Origin: an uncultured Acidobacteriota bacterium
GTDB lineage: Bacteria > Acidobacteriota > Terriglobia > UBA7540
Length of the DNA: 64,000 bases
Assembly: GCA_963804995.1 (NCBI GenBank)
Contig: CAWDSK010000002.1
Location: 416,001-480,000 of the forward strand
Direction of reading: 5' to 3'
Shown: in pieces, positions 48,841 through 63,190 of the stretch
How positions within the stretch are numbered: position 1 is the first letter of the stretch
How the letters are laid out: the number at the start of each line of letters is the position of its first letter
Notes under the pieces: model-generated
Databases searched by the model: none
Told to the model about the DNA's origin: nothing
Seen by the model: only the letters and a program-made list of their open reading frames with translations
Made by a program: the position numbers and the translations under genes

Positions 48841-48913
48841 TCACCGCGTAGCGCTGACCTTATGGTTTTTTTTATAAGTTGTAAATTGTTCTGACGGCCC
48901 GTCCGTGGAGGTA

Positions 48914-49050
48914 ACCCCTCATCCGTCCTCCTACGTCGGCCACCTTCTCCCCTGGGAGAAGGCAGGGACTTACGGTCCCTAGCCCTCTCCGAGGGGAGAG
49001 GGTGGACCGCAGCCGGCGTCTTCATCAGCCGGGGCGGGACGGGTGAGGGG
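48914..49050 (+). repeat. CCCTC...GGGAGAGGG repeat doublet, copy 2
   Basis: ccttctcccctgggagaagg followed by ccctctccgaggggagagggtggaccgc...gggtgagggg. Confidence 0.8.
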
Positions 49051-49156
49051 TCACGTGGGCGTTTGAGAATTCTACAAGTTAAAAATTCAAAAACCTTCAG
49101 GTCAGCACAAATTCGAACCACCCCGCACCGTAAAAAGCTACAAAGAATAGCGGCCA

Positions 49157-49229
49157 TCACCGCAGAGGCGCGGAGACGCAGAAAGCGCCCGTTGGTCTTT
49201 AACTCTGCGTCTCCGCGCCTCTGCGGTGA
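49157..49229. repeat. TCACCGCAGAG inverted-repeat doublet (same family as 20245-20320; half copies near 54530 and 63128)
   Basis: tcaccgcagaggcgcggagacgcaga...tctgcgtctccgcgcctctgcggtga. Confidence 0.85.
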
Positions 49230-49230
49230 G

Positions 49231-49320
49231 GAGCCGGTAGCGCAAAGGTAGGCGCAGTTTGCTTTCCTTTGCGCCTCGTAGAATCGGAAATTCAACGTCT
49301 TCAATGCCGGGCAATGAGAA
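49231..49320 (+). repeat. 90-bp block A, copy 1
   Basis: Close match to 54707-54796. Confidence 0.85.
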
Positions 49321-49326
49321 AACGCT

Positions 49327-49542
49327 TCAGGCTACCTCAACCGCGTCATGATGAAGAACCATTAGTTGGTCAGAGCGTAAGGCGAGCGTGGCGTAGGTGT
49401 GTCCTTCATTGTCGCAGAATTCGACCTCGAATACGCCGGGCGCCAGCGGTTCCACCACGGTTCCCACTTGGCCACGCCGCAAGCCGCGCTCCAGCTTGTC
49501 TTCCAAAAGTGCGACCACGGCAAAGGGCTTTACATTTTCCAT
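49327..49542 (-). CDS. DUF4926-family protein (putative antitoxin/immunity)
   Basis: VVALLED...GLRRGQVGTVVE...FEVEFCDNEGHTYA. Confidence 0.85.
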   Translation of the reverse strand: MENVKPFAVVALLEDKLERGLRRGQVGTVVEPLAPGVFEVEFCDNEGHTYATLALRSDQLMVLHHDAVEVA

Positions 49543-49553
49543 GTTGGTCTCAC

Positions 49554-49619
49554 TCACAATACATAGCAACTGGTCAGGCGGGGGAAATTCTCTCCGTGCA
49601 GGATGATCCAACTGCTCCT
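49554..49619 (-). pseudogene. 3' stub of a DUF6883-like toxin gene (usual DUF4926 partner)
   Basis: The minus strand reads RSSWIILHGENFPRLTSCYVL* directly upstream of DUF4926; the rest of the gene is absent. Confidence 0.6.
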
Positions 49620-49690
49620 TTCAACAAGAATTTTATCCCATTTGCGGTATTACGAAAATAAGAAGGCCCGATCGTTCGGCGCCAGCCCTA

Positions 49691-49752
49691 CGCACTTGTA
49701 CGGGTCCGCCGTTATAGAACCATGTGGCGCCCACTTGACGGGAAGGCGACTT
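49691..49752 (+). repeat. 62-bp block B, copy 1
   Basis: Aligns with 54923-54984. Confidence 0.75.
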
Positions 49753-49948
49753 TTCAGTCCGGATCCCCAGTAGCGGCGGAACCTCCTGCATGGCAGCAAC
49801 TTGCAGTGAGACGAGCGAATAGATTCTTCGGCGACCTTACGACAGTATTTCCCGAGTGCGCGACGAGAGTTGAGCGACATCGCTCTACCCTACGCGATCA
49901 ATTCCGCGAGTGCTGTACCAGCACAAACTTCCTCGAAGCAAACTTCGA

Positions 49949-50971
49949 TTAATGACGCCCGCCGCCGCGCGATCCGCCGCCCGCTGGCTGCTGTTTCTGC
50001 TGCATCTTCTGCGTCTGCTGCGTGTGGGTTTGCTGCAATTTCTGCGTCTGTTGCTGGTGTCGCTGCTCCACCTGCTGCGTTCTTTCGGGAGCAGCATGTT
50101 GTTTCGTCAATTGCTGATGCTCATTTTCCTGCTTCTGCTGGAGTTTCTGCCGATCCTGGGTCTGCCTTGCGACCAGCTTTTCCTGTTGCTGCTGGTATTT
50201 CTGGTCCACCCTCGCGTTCCCTGTCTTGGAAGCAGCGGCATGTTCGACGGGCGGCAGTTCCCTGGGATGGACGGAAAGGTTGGGGTGAGCGGTCGCAGCA
50301 ACTGCCGGCATGCCGTGGTTCGCAGAAAACTTTTGCTGGGGGTTACTGCGGGCAGCGTACGTATGTTGAGTCTGAGCGCCTACAGGCCTGGCATGTGTCT
50401 CATGAGCAGCAGCCTCTTCCCGGGCGCTGGCGCGCGCGTTGATTCCGCCGTTACCGCCGTTGAAGCTGACGCGGTTCCTCTCGCCCTCGTTCACCCTGGT
50501 GTTGTAAACGTTGTGGAAGTTACGGTCGTCCACGCGATTATACGCCGTGTTGTAGAAAAAATGCCCGTGGTCCCAGCGTCCGCCTTCATAACCATTACCG
50601 AAGTAACCGAAGCCATAGTTGATCCCACCATAGAAACCTACGGACGGGCCCCAGTAGCCTTCATTGAAAAAATATCCGCCGTCGCCCCAACCCCAATAGC
50701 CTGGAGTCCAGAGGTACCCGACATCCGGAGGCTCCACCCATGTGCCCGGTACCCAATAGTACTCGCTGCCGTCCCAATCCCAGTATCCCGGCGTCCAGAT
50801 ATAGCCGTCGCCCGGGCAGATCGGTTGCTCATACTCGGGCAGCGGCGGCGGAGCTATGCCGACCCTCACTCCCACGGAGATTTGCGCGGAAGAAGGTAGC
50901 GGTATCGCCAGGTACACTGCGAGTACGAAAAATAGCGGCAGAATCACACGAATCATCTTTGTCGTTCGCAT
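49949..50971 (-). CDS. Secreted YXWGXW-repeat protein with Gln-rich tail
   Basis: APPPLPEYEQP, WTPGYWDW, WTPGYWGW and GYWGP; CAGGAGG RBS. Confidence 0.88.
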   Translation of the reverse strand: MRTTKMIRVILPLFFVLAVYLAIPLPSSAQISVGVRVGIAPPPLPEYEQPICPGDGYIWTPGYWDWDGSEYYWVPGTWVEPPDVGYLWTPGYWGWGDGGYFFNEGYWGPSVGFYGGINYGFGYFGNGYEGGRWDHGHFFYNTAYNRVDDRNFHNVYNTRVNEGERNRVSFNGGNGGINARASAREEAAAHETHARPVGAQTQHTYAARSNPQQKFSANHGMPAVAATAHPNLSVHPRELPPVEHAAASKTGNARVDQKYQQQQEKLVARQTQDRQKLQQKQENEHQQLTKQHAAPERTQQVEQRHQQQTQKLQQTHTQQTQKMQQKQQPAGGGSRGGGRH

Positions 50972-51279
50972 TTTGGTTCACCTCCTGAGGTTTTAATTCC
51001 CGCGCCATTCATGCGCGCGGATGCAGGGACTGCACGCCGGACATGCAAATCCCAGGTGTTCAGATCGTTGAGCATCCAGTCAGCCAGGAACTCCATTTTG
51101 ATTCCAAGGCAACTGAAGATCACGGAGAATCAGAATCTGCGACTAGGGTAATTGAGTCGAGAATAAGGTGTCTGTATAAAAGGGAACACCGCTACTCGTG
51201 TGCGCATCAGGCCGGAATTCGCGATTGGGGCCTGTGGCTCGCAGGAGGGGAGACTCATACCGACGGTGGTTACAGTATG

Positions 51280-51378
51280 CTATTCGCTCAGGATCACGCT
51301 CAAGAGGCCATTGTTAACCGTCAACCCGCCGTTGCCCGCGTAATCGATAAAGCCCAGCAACCGGAATTTGTTCATGAG
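51280..51378 (-). pseudogene. 3' stub of a Crp/Fnr-family regulator
   Basis: The minus strand reads LMNKFRLLGFIDYAGNGGLTVNNGLLSVILSE*, like a Crp HTH C-terminus; it is cut off next to the RAYT left REP. Confidence 0.6.
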
Positions 51379-51411
51379 CAGACGCACCATCAGCGCCTTC
51401 TCGATTCGGCA

Positions 51412-52070
51412 GGCTGGCGCAGAGCGAGCTCAGCTCTGCGATTCACCTCTCCGCCCATACCCGCCGATATAGATAATATGCCGATCTATGGACGCCATTT
51501 CGAGCCTGGCCAGTTGCAGTTCATCACCACCAGCACTTACCGCCGCAGCCGGCTCTTTACCTGTCAGCGCTTCTGCTGGACCTTCGTCGAGACTCTACGC
51601 CAACTCCGCCAGGAAACCAAATTCCTCCTGATCGGCTGGGTGTTAATGCCCGAGCACTTTCACCTGCTCATTAAACCCCAACCCGCCGAGCAAATCGTCC
51701 ACTTCATGCAGGAGCTGAAGAAGCGATCCGCGCAACAGATTATCGCCGCTCTTGCCAGGAATCAACACCAGCTCACCTGCCGCACCACGCTGGCCCGGTT
51801 GCAACTGCCCCCCACCGTCCACAGCGATTCGCACTATCGACTCTGGCAGAGGCGCTATGTCCCGTTTAACGTTTTCACGGAGAAAAAGCGCTTGGAGAAG
51901 CTCAACTACATGCATGGCAATCCGGTAAAGAGAAGGCTGGTGAGCTCTCCCGATCAATGGCCCTGGTCAAGCTTTCGATTCTATTATCTGAATGATTCGT
52001 CCGTCTTGAGCATGGACCGGATTACTTGATTCGCTCTAAATCGCAGGGCTGCGCTCGCCCTGCGCCAGCC
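51412..52070 (+). mobile_element. RAYT unit: transposase flanked by inverted palindromic REPs
   Basis: ggctggcgcagagcgagctcagctctgcgatt (51412-51443) versus the reverse complement of 52039-52070, 29/32 identical. Confidence 0.8.
51478..52029 (+). CDS. REP-associated tyrosine transposase (RAYT, Y1 HUH)
   Basis: FITTST, VLMPEHFHLL (HUH), LWQRRY, YMHGNPV and WPWSS. The likely start is ATG 51478. Confidence 0.92.
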   Translation: MPIYGRHFEPGQLQFITTSTYRRSRLFTCQRFCWTFVETLRQLRQETKFLLIGWVLMPEHFHLLIKPQPAEQIVHFMQELKKRSAQQIIAALARNQHQLTCRTTLARLQLPPTVHSDSHYRLWQRRYVPFNVFTEKKRLEKLNYMHGNPVKRRLVSSPDQWPWSSFRFYYLNDSSVLSMDRIT

Positions 52071-52280
52071 CGCCACGTGTTTACTGCATATGCTTTGATA
52101 AAACTCATCAACTCGGATGACTCCGAGCGGGTAGCCACGGTCACCGCTTTTGTGACCGTGCGTCCTTCCTTCGATGCCGAACGCCCCCTGGATTGTCTCC
52201 GTGACTGCGGCCAGTAGCGATGGTCACACTGGGTATGAGAAAAGCCCACGGTCAAGAAATCATTGACCGTGGCTACCACC

Positions 52281-52578
52281 GATCACCTGGACCGTTTTTC
52301 ACCTTATCGCGGACGTGGGCCGAACCGGTGGGGTGGGGCGCTTTGTTCAAACCCGGCATGCGGCGCCGGCGCTGGCCTCGCCTATGGCGCTCGACGGATT
52401 CAGGGTGGGACTGCCGGTGCTGGCGGGGATAATCGGGATTTTGGCTGCGCCATTTTTGCTGGCTGTCCCGGCAGCCCTGGTCGTACTCGGTATCGCGTGC
52501 TCGCCGACTCTACTCGTGTAGGTCCACGACTTTTTGTCATGTGGCGAAACGTCCCACATGTTGCTCTCCGCGGGGCAT
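52281..52578. repeat. Dispersed GTCCCAC-type repeat, left part of a split copy
   Basis: Direct repeat of 62746-63043. Confidence 0.9.
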
Positions 52579-52649
52579 CGTCAGGTCGGATTTGTAGTCG
52601 GAAGGTTTTCTCCTAACCAATTGTAATTAAACACAGTATTAAGTCATAT

Positions 52650-52745
52650 GCATGATATACTTGCATTTGAACGGCGTAATTGACTTGCATTGACACGGCA
52701 TAATATACTTGTATTCGCACAACACAATAAACTTGTTTTCGCACG
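52650..52745 (+). promoter_or_regulatory. Four imperfect 24-bp tandem repeats upstream of the Fic gene (putative operator array)
   Basis: gcatgatatacttgcatttgaacg / gcgtaattgacttgcattgacacg / gcataatatacttgtattcgcaca / acacaataaacttgttttcgcacg. Confidence 0.7.
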
Positions 52746-52761
52746 AAACGAGAGAGGTTAT

Positions 52762-54312
52762 ATGGCGACGCCGAATGAGAAACTGGCGGAATCCCTGGAG
52801 GTGCTCAAAGCGCTTCAACTGGGTGGGAGACGTGTGTTCCGTTCGGACGACCTGACCCGCGTCCACCGGGAACGGCTGGTTGCGAACGGCTTTCTTCAGG
52901 AGGTCATGAAAGGCTGGCTGATCTCCTCCAACCCAACCGCACGCGAGGGCGAAAGCACACCCTGGTACGCTTCGTTCTGGGAATTTTGCGCGCGCTACTG
53001 CAACCACCGTTTCGACGAGGAGTGGCACCTCTCGCCAGAGCAATCGCTTTTGCTCCATGGCGAAAGAACGGTCATCCCCGATCAGGTCGTGGTCAACAGC
53101 CCGAAAGGCACGAACAACGCCATCGAGCTTCTGTTCGGCACGTCGCTGTACGACCTGAAGGTACCCGCGATGCCGGCCGCGGCGGATCTCGTGTTGAGGG
53201 ACGGCTTGCGGCTTTTCTCGCCGCCGGCGGCGCTGGTGAGGGTGGTGGAATCCTTTTTCCGGCGAAATCCGGTCGAAACGCAGGTATTGCTGGCAAGCCT
53301 CGTCGATGCGTCGGACCTGCTGCGGCTGTTGCTGAATGGCGGCCACTCGGCGAAAGCGGGTTACTTGGCGGGAGCGTTCCGGCAGGCAGGCCGACCCGAT
53401 TTGGCAGGTGAAATCATTAGCGCGATGAAGAGCGCCGGCTACGACGTGCGGGAGAGCAACCCCTTCGAGGCCGGGCAGATATTCGGCACGCTGCGCCGGG
53501 CTCGGCCACCCATCGTGGGGCGCGTGGAGATGCTCTGGGAGTCGATGCGCGGAGCCGTCGTGGTGACATTCCCGAAGGAACCGGGACTTCCGCAAGACCG
53601 GGATGCCTATCTTCGTTTCATCGACGGAATTTATCAAAGCGACGCCTACCATTCTCTCTCCATTGAGGGATATTCGGTCACACCGGAGGTCATTGAGAGG
53701 GTACGGCAAGGGGACTGGGACCCGGAACATCACGAGGATGACCGCAAGAACCGCGACGCCCTGGCGGCGCGCGGATACTGGCAAGCGTTCCAGCTCGTGA
53801 AAGGATCAGTGGAGAAAGTGATCGCCGGAGAGAATGCCGGCGTGTGCGCGCGCGCCGCACACAAGGATTGGTATCGCGAATTATTCCAACCCTGTGTCAC
53901 TGCTGGCCTGATCGAACCAGGCGCACTCGCCGGATACCGCAACATTCCGGTCTATCTGCGGACGTTGCGCTATGTGCCGCCACGGTGGGAGGCGGTTCGC
54001 GACGCCATGCCTGTGCTTTTTGATCTTCTTGAAAGGGAGCCCGAGCCTTCGGTGCGCGCCGTGCTCGGTCACTGGCTGTTCGGGTATATCCATCCCTATC
54101 CGGACGGCAACGGGCGCATGGCACGCTTTCTGATGAACGTGATGCTGGCATCGGGCGGCTATCCTTGGACGGTCATCCGGGTCGAGGATCGCAATGCTTA
54201 TTTGGGTGCGCTGGACCATGCCAGCATCGACATGGACATAAGACCCTTCTCCACATTTGTGGCGCAACGGGTGCGATGGTCTCTTGACCGACGGGATCAT
54301 TCGGACTCTTGA
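52762..54312 (+). CDS. Fic-domain protein with large N-terminal region
   Basis: HPYPDGNGRMAR Fic motif and YHSLSIEG; GAGAGG RBS. Confidence 0.93.
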   Translation: MATPNEKLAESLEVLKALQLGGRRVFRSDDLTRVHRERLVANGFLQEVMKGWLISSNPTAREGESTPWYASFWEFCARYCNHRFDEEWHLSPEQSLLLHGERTVIPDQVVVNSPKGTNNAIELLFGTSLYDLKVPAMPAAADLVLRDGLRLFSPPAALVRVVESFFRRNPVETQVLLASLVDASDLLRLLLNGGHSAKAGYLAGAFRQAGRPDLAGEIISAMKSAGYDVRESNPFEAGQIFGTLRRARPPIVGRVEMLWESMRGAVVVTFPKEPGLPQDRDAYLRFIDGIYQSDAYHSLSIEGYSVTPEVIERVRQGDWDPEHHEDDRKNRDALAARGYWQAFQLVKGSVEKVIAGENAGVCARAAHKDWYRELFQPCVTAGLIEPGALAGYRNIPVYLRTLRYVPPRWEAVRDAMPVLFDLLEREPEPSVRAVLGHWLFGYIHPYPDGNGRMARFLMNVMLASGGYPWTVIRVEDRNAYLGALDHASIDMDIRPFSTFVAQRVRWSLDRRDHSDS

Positions 54313-54468
54313 TATTAGGAGTTGATACATCAGGTGGTCGGAATTCCCCACTGGGTTAGCCAATAGACCGAGTAAGCGGTCAGATGAACAAGTGAGAACC
54401 CCCGGTAATTCTTCTTTTCCTTGGCATCGGCTTTGAGCAAATCGCGTGCGGTTTCTGGTTGCAATGTA

Positions 54469-54551
54469 CCCATCCTCATGCGTTTTCTTCCTATGACTTT
54501 TCACTTGCGGATTTGCCGCCTGATACGTCCGCGTCTCTGCGGTGAGAAGGC
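54469..54551. repeat. Dispersed GTCCCAC-type repeat, right part of the split copy
   Basis: Two mismatches versus 63068-63150. Confidence 0.9.
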
Positions 54552-54619
54552 TATTGGTTTTTTTCGCGGGTGGCGCCCCGATGCATCGGGGCGGCCTTCG
54601 AAGGTTGTAAGATGACCGG

Positions 54620-54710
54620 GTGCCCCGGCAGAAACATTTTTACGGTCTCAATTACCTGCCTGACATCGCCCGCAGCACCTATCGTCGGGCCCGCCTGTTC
54701 GACTCGGAGC
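54620..54710 (+). pseudogene. 5' stub of a second RAYT
   Basis: GTG start then PRQKHFYGLNYLPDIARSTYRRARLFDSE (compare STYRRSRLF in the intact RAYT); preceded by the palindrome gccccgatgcatcggggc. Confidence 0.65.
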
Positions 54711-54984
54711 CGGTAGCGCAAATGTAGGCGCAGTTCGCTTTCCTTTGCGGCTCGTAGAATCGGAATTTCGACGTGTTCAATGCCGGGCAATGAGAAGAGG
54801 CCGCGGAGGAATTCGGCTCGAAGCCAAATACCTCCACCCTACCCCGCTGGTTCTTCTGAGGCCTGCGCAGGGTCTCGCCTCAGCCGTCCCAAGACCCCCT
54901 ATTCCCGCCGGTTGCAGCACTTCGCACTTGTACCGGTCGGGCGTTTTACGACCAAGTGGCGACCACTGGACGGGAAGGCGACTT
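54707..54984 (+). repeat. Blocks A (54707-54796) and B (54923-54984), copy 2
   Basis: Same order and orientation as 49231-49752 but with a different interior. Confidence 0.8.
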
Positions 54985-55090
54985 CCTAGGCGGAATCGAT
55001 AACTTCGATCGCGAGCCGATCTGATGGTGGTTGCACTCTTGATGTGTCGTGGATAGGATGAACTTCGTGATCTACCTCGACCCCAGGAAA

Positions 55091-55177
55091 GAAAGTTCAT
55101 AGTTGACAGTCGACAGTTAACAGGCAGGGCGTTCTCGATTTTTACTATGAACTGTAAACTGTGGACTGTGAACTTTC
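55091..55177. repeat. Inverted pair of heptamer arrays
   Basis: gaaagttcatagttgacagtcgacagttaacag ... ctatgaactgtaaactgtggactgtgaactttc. Confidence 0.75.
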
Positions 55178-55181
55178 TCAG

Positions 55182-55356
55182 GGCAATCCGTTCGAGCGCT
55201 TACAAGTTCGGCGCGAAATTGAAGTCGGTTATCGAAACGGCTCGCGAACAGGTGGCGGAGTTGATTGGGGCGCACCCGCTGGATGTGATTTTTACTTCCT
55301 GCGCAACGGAGAGCAACAACGCTGCCATCGCGGCCACACAGAAGCGTTCGCCCTAA
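55182..55356 (+). pseudogene. Internal stub of a cysteine desulfurase (IscS/NifS/DndA family)
   Basis: GNP(+1)SSAYKFG...IETAREQVAELIGA...VIFTSCATESNNAAI; both ends are missing. Confidence 0.8.
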
Positions 55357-55363
55357 CAACCCA

Positions 55364-58300
55364 CTAAGGCAGTTGGAGGCAGGGGAACCTGTCGAGTTCC
55401 GGCCAATCGTGACAAGTCAGGTAAATGACCTGGCCGGAGTTCGCGTGCTCTTCCAGAATCTGAATTATCCGGCCCCGGCGTTGGGGATCGCAAGAAACAA
55501 GCGGGTCATCGAGTATCAAGGGGGGAAGGTCGTCAGCAAAGATGGAGCGAATTGCTTCAAGCCGCAGAGCCAAGTAAAACTGGTCCACAGACCCGCTGGA
55601 CATTTCATTTTGTTCCAGCTTATCACCTTTCTCGTCGGACCAGACTTGCAGGTTGAATCCATCCCCCTCTACGCGATGATAGCGGTCAGCCGTGATTCGC
55701 TTCAACAGACTTCCGACCCTGTCGGGAATGGCCTCAAGCAATTCCGCGAGCGCCTTGTTCCTTGCTTGTTGCAGTAGGTTGAGTACCGCGTTGTCTATTT
55801 CAAGCCGGTGTTCAAGCCTTGCGATTCGGCGTTCACGGTCGGCGATGTTCTCTTTTAGTTCGGAAATACGCTCCTGGTTTTGCCCGGCGGAGTCAGACTT
55901 TACCTTCAGTTCTGCTCGGGAATTGCGCAGCTTCTCCAGTTTGTCCTTGAGGGCCTTCACCGCGCGACCAAACTCGATCCTTTCGCCGGGGTTCGCGAAG
56001 GCGTACGAAAGATTTGCTTGTCTGGTCTGGTCAGCCACGGCGGCCTTGGTCACAGCCTGATTGAATTTCTGGTCGAGCTCTTCCGCCAGAAGCATCTCCC
56101 TTTCTTTTTGAAGGCGCGATAGCTGATCGCGCTTCTTTCCCAGTGTCCCTTCCGACTCCATGATTTCATTCCCAAGCTCGATCAATTCCTTGTCGCTAAG
56201 AGCAAATGGCCGGAGTGACTCAAGCTCTTCAGTGAGTTTTGCGATGGTCTCCGTCTTCGCCTTATGCCCGGCATACATAGCACTTTCGTGTCTTTCCTTC
56301 AGGATGCCCGCCTTGGATTCTTGAATCTGTGCCACCCAATTCGCGTATTGGTTGTATTCATCTTCCAGAGCTTTCAGGCCGGCCGCGGTTTCACGCTTTG
56401 TGCGCGAAATAAGAGTGGTCATCTCCTCCTGGGTATTGCGCATCTTCTCTTGCTGAGCCTGGACGGCCTTTTGGCTCTTGGCCAAACTGTGGACTAACAT
56501 TTGCACGCGGGTTTCGGCTTGAGCGCGATCTCTAGCGAGCTCTTTAAGTCTTTGCCGGTGGTCCGACAAATCCTTTTCGACAATTGACAATTCGCGAACC
56601 GAAGCGAGCTTCTCAAGCTCGGCGGCAACGGCTGACACTTTTCCGCCCAGTTCCGCGAATTCCTCGTCCCAGCTTTCCTTGGAACGAGACTCCAGCGCCG
56701 CCTCAAGACTTAGCTTATTGCTTTTTGCCTCCGCTGCCAGTTGATCGCGTTCTTCAATCCGTCGCGCCAGATCGTCCGCGTCCCTAGTCGCAGCCCTGGA
56801 GAGAATGGCGGAGATTTCGCTTTGCCGCTGCTGCAATTGTTGTGCGGTTTGGCTTTCATTCGTCAGCCGGATTGTTCCCACGCCTGGAATGTAGGCATTA
56901 ATCTCCCTTCGTCCGGTAAACTTCTGAGGCGTCTCCAGTCGGATTTCTCTTTCAGGCTCGCTGTCGATTTGAATTCTGATTGGGAGTGGATGGTCAGGGT
57001 TTAACTCGAAACCCAAACCTTCACCCTGGAGCGCATTTTCAAAGTGGTTAACGGAGGCAACAGCTTCGTGAAACGCTCTGGGATCAATGTCACTCAAACT
57101 TCTGAATGGCTCGAGTTTCGAAGTAAGGCTGAGCCGCTCCGACACGAGGGTTGTGAGCCGTGCCACCTTCTGGGAGACCCTGCGGTGATCGACTAATAGC
57201 TGCTGGTGCCTGGCCTTCGACTGCCGGGCTTGCTCCGCCAAACCGCGCTCGGATTCAAGTGTGGCAATTGCCAGCTCCTGTGCCGCTTCCTGGTGACCGA
57301 GCAGCGCCAATCGACCCCGGCTTTCCTCGATGTCCTTGACGAGGCGGGATTCCTCGTCGCGGGCTCGATCAAGCTCCGTGTTGCCGTCCCCCAGTTTCTG
57401 CTCCAAGGCATGGAACTGGTGAAAATCTTCGGGAGTAAGGCCCAAATTGGTCAACGGGTTCGCCAAATCTCTTAATTGCTGATTGAAGGCTTCCAAATTT
57501 TGAATGTCGGTGGCCAGCTGCCTGGCTTCGTCCTCCGCGTTTTTCAGATCGGCGGTCCTCTGCTTGTAACTTAGTGCCTGCTCGCGCTTTGCCTTTTGCT
57601 TTTGAAGCAGGTCCGCGATCCTTCGTAATTCAGCATCTGTAGATTCCAGAAGCTGTGGTAACTGCCCTATACGTGTTTTCTTGGCCGTGAGCTCTCCAAC
57701 CTCTAATTCCTTTTGTTTGTAAAGACTTTCGGCTTCCACATATTTCCGATCCAGGTCCTCCCTTTCTTCTGCCTGACTAATATCTCGTGTCAATTTCTCG
57801 ATCTCCGCATCGGCCACTTCAAAGTCGGCCACCGCGGCCCCCGCTTGCACTTCCCTAGCCTCCCTCTCGGCCAAGTCGTCCCGCAGATTTTGCAGCTCAT
57901 CCAACAACACCTTGACGGGCCCAGGATTCCTGGGGGCCGTCGTGAGCCAGCCCTTGCGTAGGTCAGTGTTGTGGTTATCGAGCTCCTTCTGTAGGCTTGC
58001 TAAATCGCGTCCCGTAGAACTGAGCGAGCGGTTTTCCAATTGGCTCTTCAATTGGCTCGGGTTAATGTCACTCTTGATCTCATCCTGTCTCACGCAAGCA
58101 GTCTGCCGAAATGACTCTTCAACCGCGATGGGGAGGTGTTCAGCCAAGAAATTGCGAACCTTGTCCTTTGCTTGAACTGTCTTACCCGCAAAGGTGAATC
58201 GATTCTTACCGTTTTCGAAGTCGCGCTCAAGCTTGATTTGGCCCGCCTTCAGCGCAAGATTCAGCGCCACATAAATGTGCTCGGCTGAGTTCCAGCGGCG

Positions 58301-58483
58301 GTAGCCCTTATATCTTTTGTCGCTCGATGCTGCGTCCGCATAGAGGCCGGCCAGGATCGCTTCCAGAAGGCTGGACTTGCCGGCTTCGTTTGGGCCCCTG
58401 ACTACCTGAAATCTAGTATCGAACTTCCATTCGCGGTCCGTCAGGTTCCGAAAATTCCGTGTCTCCAACGATAAAATCTTCAC
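55364..58483 (-). CDS. Rad50/SbcC-like (YhaN/AAA_27-type) coiled-coil ATPase, 1039 aa
   Basis: Walker A GPNEAGKS, long coiled coil, MSSG signature, LILDDP and YLTCH; no CxxC hook. GTGA overlap with the upstream nuclease. Confidence 0.9.
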   Translation of the reverse strand: MKILSLETRNFRNLTDREWKFDTRFQVVRGPNEAGKSSLLEAILAGLYADAASSDKRYKGYRRWNSAEHIYVALNLALKAGQIKLERDFENGKNRFTFAGKTVQAKDKVRNFLAEHLPIAVEESFRQTACVRQDEIKSDINPSQLKSQLENRSLSSTGRDLASLQKELDNHNTDLRKGWLTTAPRNPGPVKVLLDELQNLRDDLAEREAREVQAGAAVADFEVADAEIEKLTRDISQAEEREDLDRKYVEAESLYKQKELEVGELTAKKTRIGQLPQLLESTDAELRRIADLLQKQKAKREQALSYKQRTADLKNAEDEARQLATDIQNLEAFNQQLRDLANPLTNLGLTPEDFHQFHALEQKLGDGNTELDRARDEESRLVKDIEESRGRLALLGHQEAAQELAIATLESERGLAEQARQSKARHQQLLVDHRRVSQKVARLTTLVSERLSLTSKLEPFRSLSDIDPRAFHEAVASVNHFENALQGEGLGFELNPDHPLPIRIQIDSEPEREIRLETPQKFTGRREINAYIPGVGTIRLTNESQTAQQLQQRQSEISAILSRAATRDADDLARRIEERDQLAAEAKSNKLSLEAALESRSKESWDEEFAELGGKVSAVAAELEKLASVRELSIVEKDLSDHRQRLKELARDRAQAETRVQMLVHSLAKSQKAVQAQQEKMRNTQEEMTTLISRTKRETAAGLKALEDEYNQYANWVAQIQESKAGILKERHESAMYAGHKAKTETIAKLTEELESLRPFALSDKELIELGNEIMESEGTLGKKRDQLSRLQKEREMLLAEELDQKFNQAVTKAAVADQTRQANLSYAFANPGERIEFGRAVKALKDKLEKLRNSRAELKVKSDSAGQNQERISELKENIADRERRIARLEHRLEIDNAVLNLLQQARNKALAELLEAIPDRVGSLLKRITADRYHRVEGDGFNLQVWSDEKGDKLEQNEMSSGSVDQFYLALRLEAIRSIFADDLPPLILDDPLVSCDPQRRGRIIQILEEHANSGQVIYLTCHDWPELDRFPCLQLP

Positions 58484-59625
58484 TCTGTCACCCCTTCGAT
58501 CCCCTGAAAGAGAGCGTGCCCACGACGCAGTACCTCACTCAACCGTCGCTTGGCCTCCGGGTCCCCAGTAGCTTCAAGTTCCGCCCGCACTAAGTTGACG
58601 AAGGCGTGTTCTACGGTCTTCTCCCGGTAATCCTGCTCAAGTGCTTCTAGCCGGGTCTCATACTGCAACACGTGCGTATCAATTTCGAGGTAGGCGAACC
58701 CTGGAGCAAGCTCTTCGGTGAGGCGTACCGCATCAACGGATTCGTCGTTTGAGATCGTACCTGCCAACTTAACCCTCAGCACGCGATGGGGGTCTGCCAT
58801 GCTGTCAATTTTCTCATTTAGCGCCTCGGCCGAACCGACTTTCTCCCAAGAAAGGTCTAATTCGGTCCATTGATAATGTCCGGTGCTAATTTTCTCAACG
58901 GTGACCCCACTTTCGTCCAAACTCACCAGTGCCACAAATCCGGACTCTCCTTTGTCGTTGAATTGGAGCGTTTCTGGTGAGCCGGAATATTGAACAACCG
59001 TTTTGGTATTGTCGTAACATCGCGTAAAGGTGTGCCGGTCTCCCATCGCAAGGTACGTAAAGCCGCAGTGTTCCACATGCTCCCTCTTCAGGAGTGATCC
59101 GTGACTCTCCTCTGGAATCTGAGGCAATGCGATGCCCGTGTGCAGTAAAAGAACATTGAAGTCGGCGCGCGGGTCAGGCGTGATCCCCTCTAGCGGGTTG
59201 TCCGAGTCTGGCAATAACGCGCGACCGTGAATAGCCAATCGACCCGAAGCCAATTTAGTGGTCTCGACTGTCTCCTTAGTGAATATGTGGAGGTTCTCGG
59301 GTTTGTTTAGCTGAAAATGCCGGGAGCGGAAAATGGCTCTTTGATTGATGCTATCGTGGGTCCACGTACCGGGGAGAAAGAACACGGGAGTCGGCTGGAT
59401 TGAGCTAACAGTGTCCATGAAAAATTTAATGTCCAGCGGCGAAATCCTTTCGGAGTCGAAGACATCGCCTGACAAGAGTACTGCATCCACCCGCCGCTCT
59501 GAAGCAACCGCAAACACCTTTGCGAATGTTTCTTTGATTTGTGATCGCAGTATTTTACCAAACGCTCCGAACTGCTCGAACGCTTTACCGAGATGAACGT
59601 CAGCTGTGTGGATAATCTTGAGCAT
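58480..59625 (-). CDS. Mre11/SbcD-like (YhaO-type) metallophosphoesterase DNA nuclease
   Basis: HTADVHLG, SGDVFD, PGTWTHD, LLLHTG, MGDRH and YSGSPE. Confidence 0.9.
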   Translation of the reverse strand: MLKIIHTADVHLGKAFEQFGAFGKILRSQIKETFAKVFAVASERRVDAVLLSGDVFDSERISPLDIKFFMDTVSSIQPTPVFFLPGTWTHDSINQRAIFRSRHFQLNKPENLHIFTKETVETTKLASGRLAIHGRALLPDSDNPLEGITPDPRADFNVLLLHTGIALPQIPEESHGSLLKREHVEHCGFTYLAMGDRHTFTRCYDNTKTVVQYSGSPETLQFNDKGESGFVALVSLDESGVTVEKISTGHYQWTELDLSWEKVGSAEALNEKIDSMADPHRVLRVKLAGTISNDESVDAVRLTEELAPGFAYLEIDTHVLQYETRLEALEQDYREKTVEHAFVNLVRAELEATGDPEAKRRLSEVLRRGHALFQGIEGVTE

Positions 59626-59675
59626 TCCGCACCCTTAATAAACAATTTCCATGGGGAAGCGCCACCTACGCGCTC

Positions 59676-61968
59676 TCATGCCCCGGAGACGAATTTCAAA
59701 GCTTTGTTGGCGTACGCCTGGAGTTGAACGTCATCCACTTGCTCAGAGTCACTTCCGCTCTGGCTCGGGTCGTGGTGATACTTCTTCGAGTAATCATTGA
59801 TGGCCTCGAGCTCGCTTAGCTTCGGCTGGAGCGAGTATAAGATATCGTTCGCAGGAGCGCCCCTTATTTTGCCTATGAACTCACCAAGCCATTCGGTTCT
59901 AGTGAAGTGTTTTGGGAATCTCAATCTTAGGTTTCTTTCAACCAGCGGTCGGATGCACCGTGCAATATGTCGCAGGTCTCCCGTTACTCCCTTTTCCAAG
60001 TACTCGTCTAGGGTGAAATAGTCTTGGAGATAGGCATCCCGGGTCGCCTTTTCTATGTCCCATGCGTCTAGGGCACTATCCTGACCGGTTCTTACGATCT
60101 GAAGATTCTTGACCGTCGATTTAGTCTCTTCACTCCAAATGGACAATAGAAAATAAGGATCGTGCGAGAGCACCACAGCTTGCTTGACCTTTTGGGTTAG
60201 GCCGCGAATTACCTGTTGGGTACATGCGCGGCGGTTTGAGTCCAGGCTCGAAACTGGATCGTCAAAAATAATTATCCTGTCCGAGAGATTGGGATCGCCT
60301 TCCAGCCTCGCAATGAAGAAGGCCAACGCGAGCGTGCTTTTGTCACCCGCACTTAACGTGTTCTTGAAGCAAGGACCACTCACTGCTGACTTTGAATCGC
60401 CCAAGTTTACGGGGGTATCGTTTATAAAAAGTTGATAGTCAATCGCCGGTTTGCCTCCCGTAAGTTTCGTGGCCGAATTACCAATCTTGAAGGTCGCCCC
60501 AAAATTCGCCAGGTGGGTGTCGATACTGGTTTCGTACCTCCCGAGAACCTGTTCTGAGTAGCGCTTGAGATCCTTGTTGGCTTTCTGTTTCTCGTTGCTA
60601 AGAGTTTCCTTCTCCTCAAGCAACTTATTGTACTCGTCGCAGAGTTTCTTCACCTTCGCGTCGGTGTGACGCTTCCTCGCATTCTTCAGGTCCTCCAGAT
60701 CTTTGTCCACGAGACGTTGATCGGCACCTGTTGTCCTTTTTTTCTTTTCGTCGATTAAACCATTTGCGGCTTCGACTTTGTTGTTATAAATCGAGGCGCT
60801 ACGGGAGAAGCCGTCGAAGGCTGTAATGGCCTGCTTCAAGTCGTCACCTATTTCGATTGTTTCCAGTGGCGACGCTTCCTTGCGCCTGAGATGTTGTTCG
60901 AGTCGGCTGTGAAGCTCCGCCCAGGCGCTTTGGAGCTTGTCGAATTCGATGATCGGGTAGTCTGCCTTGACGTGCCCCTTCCAGAATTCGATGTTCGAGT
61001 TGTTCGCATCAATTGTGCGCTGCAACTTCAGAATTGCTTGCTGAGAGAATTCCGCCCCAACTTCCGAGATCATTTGGCGGATCTCAGCCTTTAACCCCGC
61101 ATATGCCTTGCTGAAAAATGCTCGATACGCTCTGATGAGTTCTAGTCCGGTAAGTGGCTGACCGCAGAACGGGCAGCGATCTGCCTTTATGTACTCGAGT
61201 CCACTGTTTATCCACGTCTCGCCCTGCTCGTTCATGCAGCTCGCCACGTGTTGTCTTATCAACTTCTCCGCAGTCTCAGCAACGTCGGCGATTGTCTTGC
61301 CTAAAAGCGACTGGACGCCGGCCAAGGCGAGTTGGGGGAGCGAAAGCTTTGTCAATGCGGGTTTATTGGCAATAACTGTCGCCTGTTTGATAGCTTCGAT
61401 TTCGGCTTCCTTTTCTGCAATCTGTCTATCCACATCAGTAATAAATGGCAAGTTGACAAATTGTTCAACGCCCAAACCACCCAAAATGTTCTGTTGAATC
61501 TCTTTTCCCTTGGACTTAATCTCCTCACTCTTGTCCCTGCTTTTGCTGTCGAGGTCATCGACGGCGTTCGCTAATTGCACTCCCTTCTTGCCCACTATGA
61601 ATCGGTAGAGATTTTTCCTGTGTTCGTGATCCACGTAAACACCAGAGTAAACATTTTCGTTGATGAATGTGGTATCGAAAACCTTCGAGTTCGGGGACTG
61701 GATTGTCCCAATTGCCGTTTTTGAAAGTGTGGCTGGCGCTGTTCACTCGGATACAGGCTTCCGGTTCCTTGGACGATTTGATTGACTTTCTTTCAAGCAG
61801 GCATTGCGCATCTCCGGTGCCGAGTGACCGCAGAATCGCAGAAAGCATTGTCTTCCCGCGCCCGTTCTCGCCGAAGATCAATGTCAATTTCTGAAACTCG
61901 ACGTCACCGTGGCAAGAGTAATCCACGAACCTCCCAACATTTTTAATGAAGAGGATCTTATTAATCAT
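59676..61968 (-). CDS. RloC-like (AAA_13) zinc-hook ABC ATPase with probable C-terminal HEPN-like domain; +1 frameshift near 61682
   Basis: GENGRGKT, VFDTTFINENVY after frame repair, CPFCGQ hook, LSAGDK, IFDDPVSSLD, LSHD, and C-terminal RPLVE...NDYSKKYHH; GGAGG RBS. Confidence 0.8.
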
Positions 61969-61993
61969 GGCTTGCACCTCCAGTCACAACGAG

Positions 61994-62560
61994 CTACGCG
62001 CTAAGAATGGGCTGGTTGGAAACCGAGACGCGGGGCAAGTCAGGATGCCGCCGCAATCCGTTACGCGTTTGGCGTGCCGCCATGGTTTGGGCGCGGGTGG
62101 AGCTTTCAGCACGGCGCGCGCCGAAGTGCAGGATGGCCTCTCCCCAATGGCCAACACGCTGCTTCACCAAGGCGTTTACCGGATCAATCTTCATCCGCTG
62201 TGTGCACCAGCGGAAGGTGCGGTTGGGGGGAGGGTAGCCCCGTCCAATGATGTTGACCCAAAAGGATTCTTCGAGGAGGGGCTTGAACAGGTTGGCGTCG
62301 ATATTCAGGTTGTTCTGCTCGGAGCACTTCCGCATGCGGTCCAGTGTGCCTTCGATCATCTCGGCAATGGCGGGAATCTCCACGCGCGTGTCCGTGCAAA
62401 GGACCGAGATGGGCTTTTTTCGCTGCTCGGCGGGAATGGACAGTACGGCGTCGAAAATCAGCGACGCCAGCATCGTGCTGTCCTTGCCGCCGCTAAATCC
62501 GACCAGCCAGGGCCGCTCGTCTTCCAGGTAGAGTTGGCGGAGGGAAGTCTTGAAAAACAT
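61994..62560 (-). pseudogene. dndC: Truncated DNA phosphorothioation sulfurtransferase DndC (N-terminal ~190 aa)
   Basis: RPWLVGFSGGKDS, DTRVEIP, FWVNIIGRGYPPP, FRWCTQRMKIDP and GARRAESSTR; it stops before the C-terminal Fe-S half. Confidence 0.85.
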
Positions 62561-62745
62561 CGTCACTCCCGTCGCGGGGAGTATACACCCCCCCCTTTTA
62601 TTTTCAAGTAATGGCTTTAAGATAGCATTAACGGCGGCTGGGGGAAAAGGGCTGCGCTTGCCCGGGAGCAATGCTGACTGGGTACGTAGTCGAATTGGGA
62701 ACGAAAACGCCCTTCTATGACAGTGGGGAACTGCATCATCACGTG

Positions 62746-63150
62746 GATCAGTTTGACGGTTTGTCGCCTTATCGCGGACGTGGGCCGAACCGGCAGTGTT
62801 GGGCGCTTTGTTTAAACCCGACATGCGGCGCCGGCGCCGGCCTCGCCGCTGGCGCTCCACGGATTCAGGGTGGGGCTGCCGGTGCTGGCGGGGATAATCG
62901 GGATTTCGGCTGCGCCATTTTTGCTGGCTGTCCCGGCAGCCCTGGTCGTACTCGGCATCGCGTGCTCACCGACTCTACTCGCGCAGGTCCACGACTTTTT
63001 GTCATGTGGGGAAACGTCCCACTTGTTGCTCTCCGCGGGGCATAGCGAGCGAGGTCCCACTTAATTCCCCATCTTCATGCGTTTTCTTCCTATGACTTTT
63101 CACTTGCGGATTCGCCGCCTGATACGTCCGCGTCTCTGCGGTGAGAAGGC
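62746..63150. repeat. Dispersed GTCCCAC-type repeat, longest contiguous copy (~400 bp)
   Basis: Contains the segments seen at 13247, 25111, 52281 and 54469. Confidence 0.9.
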
Positions 63151-63190
63151 ACCCGCGGGTATTCGTCTCAGAGAAGGCGGAGATGTGACC

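Follow-up and report, generated by a model that had tools for sequence, protein, structure and literature searches.

RloC is common in defence surveys. The protein described from Geobacillus kaustophilus and Acinetobacter baylyi, 658–897 residues long, combines an ABC ATPase split by a coiled coil, a CxxC hook and a C-terminal triad published as R-x3-E-x36-52-H, and its gene has been linked to type I or III restriction loci (PMC2610378; PMC3458546; PMC3874168). It carries an internal switch (PMC3458546), needs linear DNA and is active only while bound (PMC3874168). Another tRNase built on an ABC ATPase, OLD, senses DNA ends and hairpins, and its triggers are removed by nucleases of the host, RecBCD clearing self ends and SbcCD hairpins (PMC13648713; bioRxiv 10.64898/2026.07.10.737580). 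DNA-end sensing derived from SbcCD is used for defence in Lamassu and DdmABC (PMC12663957), and a hook-less SbcC-like ATPase with a central domain of its own is encoded beside an SbcD-like gene in Bacillus subtilis as SbcE-SbcF (YhaN-YhaO; PMC2811018). Here we describe a run of RloC-like, SbcD-like and SbcC-like genes in a window of 64,000 nucleotides (positions 416,001 to 480,000 of contig CAWDSK010000002.1, assembly GCA_963804995.1) from an uncultured bacterium of the Acidobacteriota (Terriglobia; UBA7540), whose genome is called G000 below.

At this locus two known kinds of module, one of them in an uncharacterised hook-less form, stand in a recurrent, non-obligate pairing, and the RloC copy is broken (Table 1). 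All three genes lie on the minus strand; the RloC-like gene runs from an ATG at 61968 to a stop ending at 59676, a 50-bp spacer separates this stop from the SbcD-like start, and the SbcC-like start overlaps the sbcD stop in GTGA. The GC content of the block is 0.521 against 0.585 ± 0.015 for genome windows of 6.6 kb, of which 1 in 1140 is as low. The shared orientation, spacing, overlap and AT-richness had been noted in the original prediction, made from the sequence alone, and all were found again, as was a layout unlike that of Lamassu, Wadjet and DdmABC. By PADLOC, the six window proteins scanned gave no LmuA or LmuC match, which rejects Lamassu, and no JetA/B/D match, which rejects Wadjet. 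Compared with Lamassu and DdmABC, this run keeps a full SbcD and carries the effector fused to a second SMC-like ATPase, and its PADLOC LmuB matches are weak (E 2.7e-14). Compared with the OLD case, in which the nucleases are host housekeeping enzymes and the effector is TOPRIM, it has a dedicated pair in the same run and a HEPN-like effector. No description of an RloC-sbcD-sbcC operon was found in the full-text literature searched, which covers few subscription journals, although Table S1 of PMC2610378 or comparative neighbourhood tables might contain such links, and none is reported in the available parts of PMC2610378, PMC3710099, PMC10586767 and PMC12663957. The available part of PMC10853773 mentions neither RloC nor SbcC; that of PMC12322248 lists RloC as not tested and that of bioRxiv 10.64898/2026.07.06.735840 counts sbcD insertions among the hits lifting a conjugation barrier, neither part reporting the operon.

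Table 1. Coordinates of the three-gene run and of the features around it, in positions of the 64,000-nucleotide window.
Feature	Position	Strand	Evidence
RloC-like N-terminal piece, Walker A GENGRGKT, ~94 codons before frameshift	61686..61968	-	87–99% identity to intact relatives; PADLOC PDC-S06 E 1e-17
RloC-like C-terminal piece (other frame): coiled coil, CPFC hook, LSAGD signature, FDDP Walker B, HEPN-like domain	59676..61685	-	PADLOC PDC-S06 E 5.6e-59; Pfam AAA_13 114 bits, cut-off 36
CPFC zinc-hook motif, RloC-like protein	61164..61175	-	both Cys invariant, 18/18 alignment rows
HEPN-like C-terminal domain, R-x3-E...H triad	59676..60080	-	triad invariant, 18/18 rows
GGAGG ribosome-binding site before RloC-like ATG	61977..61981	-	sequence
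SbcD/Mre11-like metallophosphoesterase, 381 aa, intact	58480..59625	-	Pfam Metallophos; profile match to SbcD/Mre11 structures; motifs
Hook-less SbcC/Rad50-like ATPase, 1039 aa, intact	55364..58483	-	Pfam AAA_23 and AAA_27; AlphaFold2; Rad50-like head; no CxxC
Beta-sheet apex domain of SbcC-like protein, residues 490–542, predicted homodimer interface	56858..57016	-	six strands at coiled-coil turn; two-copy model
Truncated dndC relic, first ~185 codons	61994..62560	-	PADLOC DndC E 7.8e-66
Sigma-70-like site TTGAAA-16-TATACT before dndC, possible promoter of whole run	62580..62607	-	10/12 matches
dndA/iscS fragment, 54 codons, convergent on sbcC	55183..55344	+	PADLOC SspA and DndA E ~1e-16
83-nt direct repeat, left copy	54469..54551	.	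right copy 63068–63150, 98%
298-nt direct repeat, right copy	62746..63043	.	left copy 52281–52578, 92%
Accessory region, 14.3 kb, between 257-aa conserved gene and hemA	48841..63190	.	contents: DUF4926, WXXGXW, REP-associated transposase, Fic, dnd relics, trio

The call of the first gene as RloC-like was supported. Pfam AAA_13 matches over its cut-off, PADLOC assigns PDC-S06, and JGI names relatives ‘wobble nucleotide-excising tRNase’. The CPFC hook and the HEPN-like triad (R673, E677 and H732 in the numbering of 763-aa relatives) are invariant in the RloC alignment, in which GENGRGKT, LSAGD, DD569-570 and H602 (H-switch) are also conserved, Walker A falling within the frameshifted N-terminal piece here. 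The length of 763 aa lies inside the published range; the E-to-H spacing of the triad is 53–54, as against 36–52 published for RloC. A structure model of the relative P0062 shows long helices (pLDDT 64), and Foldseek with the RloC model, whose HEPN part was not folded alone, returned SMC-like heads only. Gene 1 is RloC-like by every sequence test save the E-to-H spacing, and its tRNase activity is putative.

The frame of this gene is broken by one extra base near 61685, which stands as a single gap in the DNA alignment to the intact related locus L018. The identity of the N-terminal piece given in Table 1 is to residues 1–93 of the relatives P0062–P0064, whose gene is unbroken at 763 aa. As a proxy for assembly error, a small sample of 16 loci was compared with relatives' proteins (7222 aa), and frame splits appeared only in the RloC-like gene and in one dndC pseudogene; we lean towards real decay rather than an assembly error. 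Positions 61690–61968 are 99% identical to P0063 and positions 59676–61685 only 78% to P0063 and 86% to P0062, a mismatch that possibly reflects recombination between alleles. Split or interrupted RloC-like genes are also frequent elsewhere (L140, L149, L155, L161, L164, L165, L205 and L206; 6 of 80 GTDB loci; genomes G017 and G083).

The following two genes had been read as an Mre11/Rad50-type pair. Of this reading the nuclease and ATPase families and the Rad50 head stood, whereas the zinc hook is missing, so that the architecture is SbcE-like and not that of plain Rad50. The SbcD-like protein matches E. coli SbcD and Mre11 structures by profile (E 5.5e-15), and its phosphoesterase motifs I, II and IV are intact, with PGTWTHD as a variant motif III and MGDRH as motif V. 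The standard motifs III and V are GNHD and GHxH; of 46 clade rows, 44 have PGTWTHD at motif III, and at motif V 18 read GHWH and 26 GD[RWF]H. The head of the SbcC-like AlphaFold2 model (pLDDT 83) matches Rad50 (Z 25.7, rmsd 3.4, 325 aligned), and no CxxC zinc hook occurs within residues 250–800 in any of 20 SbcC-like rows; a CxxC count in outgroup ATPases (23/37) was discarded, since a head motif also matches the pattern. At the turn of the coiled coil the model places a six-strand beta-sheet apex. Two copies of residues 430–630 score 0.52 against 0.01 for the best control, with at least 89% of contacts common to the runs and pLDDT of at least 80; as benchmarks, 20 of 30 solved pairs come up to this mark, and so does 1 of 23 single chains. 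This supports a predicted apex dimer formed by pairing of strands 490–497 and 535–542, a testable dimer that would use neither hinge nor zinc hook. No solved structure matched the apex domain among the results, in which the domain was not searched alone, and an Atlas structure search returned unnamed clusters at 0.96–0.97. The pair lies below all NCBIfam cut-offs.

With SbcCD and Mre11-Rad50 the pair shares the order of nuclease before ATPase with overlap, the Rad50-like head and Mre11 motifs I, II and IV; it differs in the missing hook, the beta-sheet apex, motif III and its accessory place in defence islands. With SbcE-SbcF it shares the hook-less design and a Pfam AAA_27 match; the central domain of SbcE, compared here by its description, is hydrophobic and the gene conserved in Gram-positives (PMC2811018), in contrast to the predicted beta-sheet apex and the patchy occurrence of the present pair. 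One housekeeping relative of ~720 aa (L032:11116-13257) has a hydrophobic, membrane-like stretch at the apex and no beta-sheet domain, and many such relatives lie inside a leucine biosynthesis cluster.

The original prediction had reckoned with the pair being the core repair copy. This is ruled out: the clade SbcD profile matches in 3 of 133 family genomes, the insertion site is empty in four congeners, and the pair is accessory and sits among defence genes. In class and phylum samples (401 each, four candidates scored per genome) the sole match was G000. The core SbcD profile TIGR00619 matches in 3 of 29 genus genomes, none over the cut-off, and by this profile the host genus is without core SbcCD. 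In viral contigs 16 loci matched, all at 30% identity or less and all lacking the partner genes; plasmids gave one record at 26%. Clade loci adjoin Mrr, type II/IIG restriction-modification, DruE-like helicases and pAgo-SIR2, and the sister group at 34–38% identity has OLD and GajB as neighbours. Relatives at 28–32% identity stand among leuA, leuB, pfkA, hisB, dnaX and uvrA (20 of 66 loci inspected; nine neighbours confirmed by Pfam). These housekeeping neighbours, taken with the lack of core SbcCD in the host genus and with B. subtilis SbcE, which has no CxxC and acts in break repair (PMC2811018), lend something to the view that the genes form a mobile SbcE/SbcF-type module with no immune role, which mends breaks made by neighbouring nucleases or aids island recombination; we hold this view to be very improbable, the pair being so patchy in the family and in the wider samples, integrase and conjugation genes being unseen at the window, and defence neighbours recurring. 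Downstream of the pair at one clade locus, an Mrr-type nuclease adjoins an SMC-like ATPase of 1286 aa whose C-terminal domain is Peptidase_S24-like (L021:16996-20853), and at another a stand-alone KTSC gene lies directly upstream of sbcD (L016:157-387).

A survey of gene neighbourhoods, which the original prediction had proposed, found the trio again, down to 49–60% identity, both in metagenome contigs and in further genera of the family. Twelve distinct loci with SbcD identity of at least 54% were read as DNA (the window, L016–L025, with L017 = L195/G070 counted once, and L196/G075); they come from among the matches listed, and further close loci were missed. RloC stands directly or one gene upstream of the pair at 5 of the 12, four times intact: in the window (broken), at L018 and L196 (763-aa lineage), at L017 (771 aa) and at L022 (857 aa). 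The RloC of L017 is 33% identical to the 763-aa lineage, that of L022 27–36% over short stretches. At L020 only the last codons of a 763-type RloC remain, behind an insertion (by eye), and at L019 an upstream tail is HEPN-like in look without being significant (best E 0.025) and is counted apart. At two loci, the window and L020, RloC is broken or a remnant with sbcD intact, and the reverse was seen at none of the loci read; four sister loci have no RloC.

In the family, RloC adjoins the pair in all three genomes that carry the pair, and RloC matches occur in 7 of 133 genomes, four of these without the pair (G092, G083, G088 and G017). Among the matches listed, 11 of 44 close RloC records share a source contig of exactly the same size with an SbcD-clade record, as against 0 of 98 distant and 0 of 120 857-type records, and HMD83757.1 and HMD83758.1, an RloC/SbcD link, are consecutive accessions. 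In a quick SbcD tree, each of the four subclades has RloC-763 links. Over 12 pairs (3 joined by DNA, 1 by accession and 8 by exact contig size), RloC and SbcD identities vary together (r=0.93, Spearman 0.53, 0 of 5000 permutations). As relatives do not count as independent and every named host is from Terriglobia, this shows long co-inheritance and not co-evolution. No link of RloC with the pair was found beyond one Terriglobia family in the class and phylum samples searched. Beside these linkages, a TM0106-family RecB-like nuclease (TIGR03491 over cut-off) is encoded behind sbcC, fused to a helicase, at two loci with different RloC lineages (L196:3542-6937, L022:11141-12682) and precedes a solitary RloC in L096:8035-9468. 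In G075, RloC and sbcD are separated by a 222-aa gene that matches nothing in Pfam, PADLOC or NCBIfam (L196:11516-12181).

The reading that we tentatively prefer, at somewhat less than even confidence, is a loose, non-obligate two-tier defence cassette in which the pair acts as first tier and threshold-setter, RloC acts as second tier, and the two are coupled through DNA ends. The first module, intact here, would be a hook-less SbcCD-type complex, its ATPase predicted to dimerise through the heads and the beta-sheet apex; judging from its family, it would load on linear or hairpin DNA, which the Mre11-like nuclease would trim, and so clear the ends of invading DNA as well as stray ends of the host. 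The second module would be an RloC-type tRNase with its own hook and ATPase switch, frameshifted here and intact in relatives. Ends that outlast the first module, whether in a flood of phage ends or under a block of the nuclease, would lead RloC to cut anticodons and stop translation. The pair would in this way set the threshold of RloC and lower the cost of keeping it, which would explain the long co-inheritance with one RloC lineage and the refilling of the slot by two others. The linkage results above speak for this reading, as does the want of a core SbcCD in the host genus. The direction of coupling we infer from the internal switch of RloC and its need for linear DNA, and from the precedent of OLD, whose triggers RecBCD and SbcCD remove. 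A dedicated protein interface is improbable in view of the three exchangeable RloC lineages and the solitary occurrence of both modules; the shared currency would be the DNA end. In the source genome only the first module is likely to be active.

Several observations weigh against this cassette. First, no RloC lies upstream of the pair at L016, L021, L023, L024 and L025, and the pair's neighbours include many other defence systems besides RloC. Second, the 99% complete genome G092 (= L096) has an intact, 60%-identical RloC and no match to the pair, which also shows that the pair is not a required antidote. Third, the source genome encodes an AddA-like helicase-nuclease that could clear ends. 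Fourth, the 857-aa lineage gave no size match, which makes L022 a single event, and on the SbcD side at least 9 of 52 contigs of at least 5 kb match a close RloC by exact size, a lower bound that covers the longest contigs and some cluster members. Fifth, in the identity comparison 8 of 12 pairs are joined by size alone, kin are not independent, the Spearman value is only 0.53 and much of r comes from six close pairs. Finally, the motif III Asn is absent and the first motif V His often so, which makes nuclease activity uncertain, although the housekeeping relatives likewise have Thr for Asn (PGTHD in 56 of 66), so that the motif III change need not inactivate the clade nuclease. The obligate three-gene system of the original prediction did not survive these results, given the five of 12 pair loci without RloC, the solitary RloC of G092, the three RloC lineages and the absence of this pair from all 80 GTDB RloC loci, which are mostly distant; one of them, L172, holds a distant nuclease-ATPase pair.

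The same observations would suit an independent accessory pair that came to lie behind RloC in an ancestor and was copied along with it, later RloC arrivals being chance for so common a gene. Such hitch-hiking, which we judge unlikely while taking it as the most serious competitor, would account for the pair's place beside Mrr, type II/IIG restriction-modification, DruE-like helicases, pAgo-SIR2, GajB and OLD, for the different cargo that the dndC...dndA frame around the trio carries at each place, and for both modules being found alone, with no pair at the 80 GTDB RloC loci. It would leave unexplained that linkage has been kept over 49–60% identity and four subclades despite the fast turnover of defence slots, that two independent refills were made by RloCs too divergent for homologous exchange, and that RloC stands beside the pair in every family genome carrying it.

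The original prediction had coupled the modules in the opposite sense to the threshold-setting pair that we prefer: by opening invader DNA that is hairpin, protein-blocked or replicating, the pair would make the clean ends that switch RloC on, both modules being needed for full protection. SbcCD-type enzymes do cleave hairpins and blocked ends (PMC12663957), RloC does require linear DNA (PMC3874168) and the operon spacing is tight; RloC is nevertheless self-sufficient (PMC3458546) and mostly solitary, the sole published case of a tRNase with SbcCD has SbcCD suppressing activation (PMC13648713; bioRxiv 10.64898/2026.07.10.737580), and the swapping among three RloC lineages speaks against a tuned hand-over, which together make this proposal improbable.

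A wider form of the two-tier cassette is unlikely. An uncharacterised clade of hook-less Mre11-Rad50-like complexes with a beta-sheet apex dimer may have left housekeeping repair for defence islands and recruited RloC as back-up on repeated occasions, such that the nuclease itself is guarded and phage end-binding inhibitors would unleash tRNA cleavage. If this were true, the operon would encode a self-contained guard logic otherwise known only from host RecBCD or SbcCD, and would be a living intermediate on the route from SbcCD to immunity. Apart from that form, a natural and repeatedly formed pairing of RloC with a DNA-end nuclease permits a direct test of whether end-clearing enzymes set the threshold of RloC, and an intact SbcCD-type machine in a defence setting represents the step proposed to precede Lamassu. 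This value is tempered by the loose linkage, by the restriction to one Terriglobia family in what was searched and by the broken RloC copy here.

As to its setting, the trio block sits as cargo in a decayed dndC...dndA hotspot, inside the 14-kb accessory region. In four of five congeners the conserved genes that flank this region, 14.3 kb apart here, are separated by 2, 83, 646 and 1758 bp, the fifth having no close hemA match. The truncated dndC ends 25 bp before the RloC-like start and covers positions 16–190 of the 481 of the PADLOC DndC profile, with TIGR03183 below its cut-off, and the dndA/iscS fragment faces the end of sbcC. A functional Dnd system is ruled out, the locus having only dndC and dndA fragments; dndD-bearing loci occur in relatives. 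Of the four relatives read, L209 and L211 have dndD with DGQHR-type genes between dndC and a convergent dndA, and L210 and L212 have other cargo there. Of the 133 family genomes, 24 have a dndC match; the dndC...dndA frame is a defence hotspot in the host's Terriglobia family.

A repeat-bounded island had also been claimed, and two direct-repeat pairs do bracket the block (298 nt at 52281/62746, 83 nt at 54469/63068). Their full-length copies occur only here, whereas genome-wide blastn of the 298-nt and 83-nt queries gave 65 and 36 matches, so that the bracketing repeats are composed of dispersed types; they are not shown to be att sites, and an att-site island is rejected. No integrase was seen among the window ORFs scanned, and a tRNA scan gave 0 genes. 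Sigma-70-like sites, such as the one before dndC, number 5 against 3.8 ± 1.9 in shuffles, which is not above chance.

Further loci of these kinds were met along the way. The source genome has two more broken dndC loci with different defence cargo, one (C1:430294-440225, L215) with HNH, HTH-ImmA/IrrE, a Pycsar-type membrane effector, YhcG and an iscS fragment, the other (C6:375856-383183, L216) with a MORC-like ATPase and two D12 adenine methylases. In L209:12908-14386 and L211:13620-15098, dndD precedes a gene for a 493-aa protein, ATPase-like in its C-terminal region (weak DndH and mad8 matches), and DGQHR-type genes. Within the window, positions 51043–54312 encode a Fic protein of 540 aa and a REP-associated tyrosine transposase, the latter flanked by inverted repeats (51408/52074). 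Finally, another hook-less sbcD-sbcC pair of G000, unrelated to the first (C6:6200-9556, L213; products of 380 and 714 aa), follows an SNF2-like helicase and a sigma-70-like gene, is convergent on a 1053-aa SIR2-domain protein and lies near AbiEii; a similar sbcD occurs in one congener only, G002.

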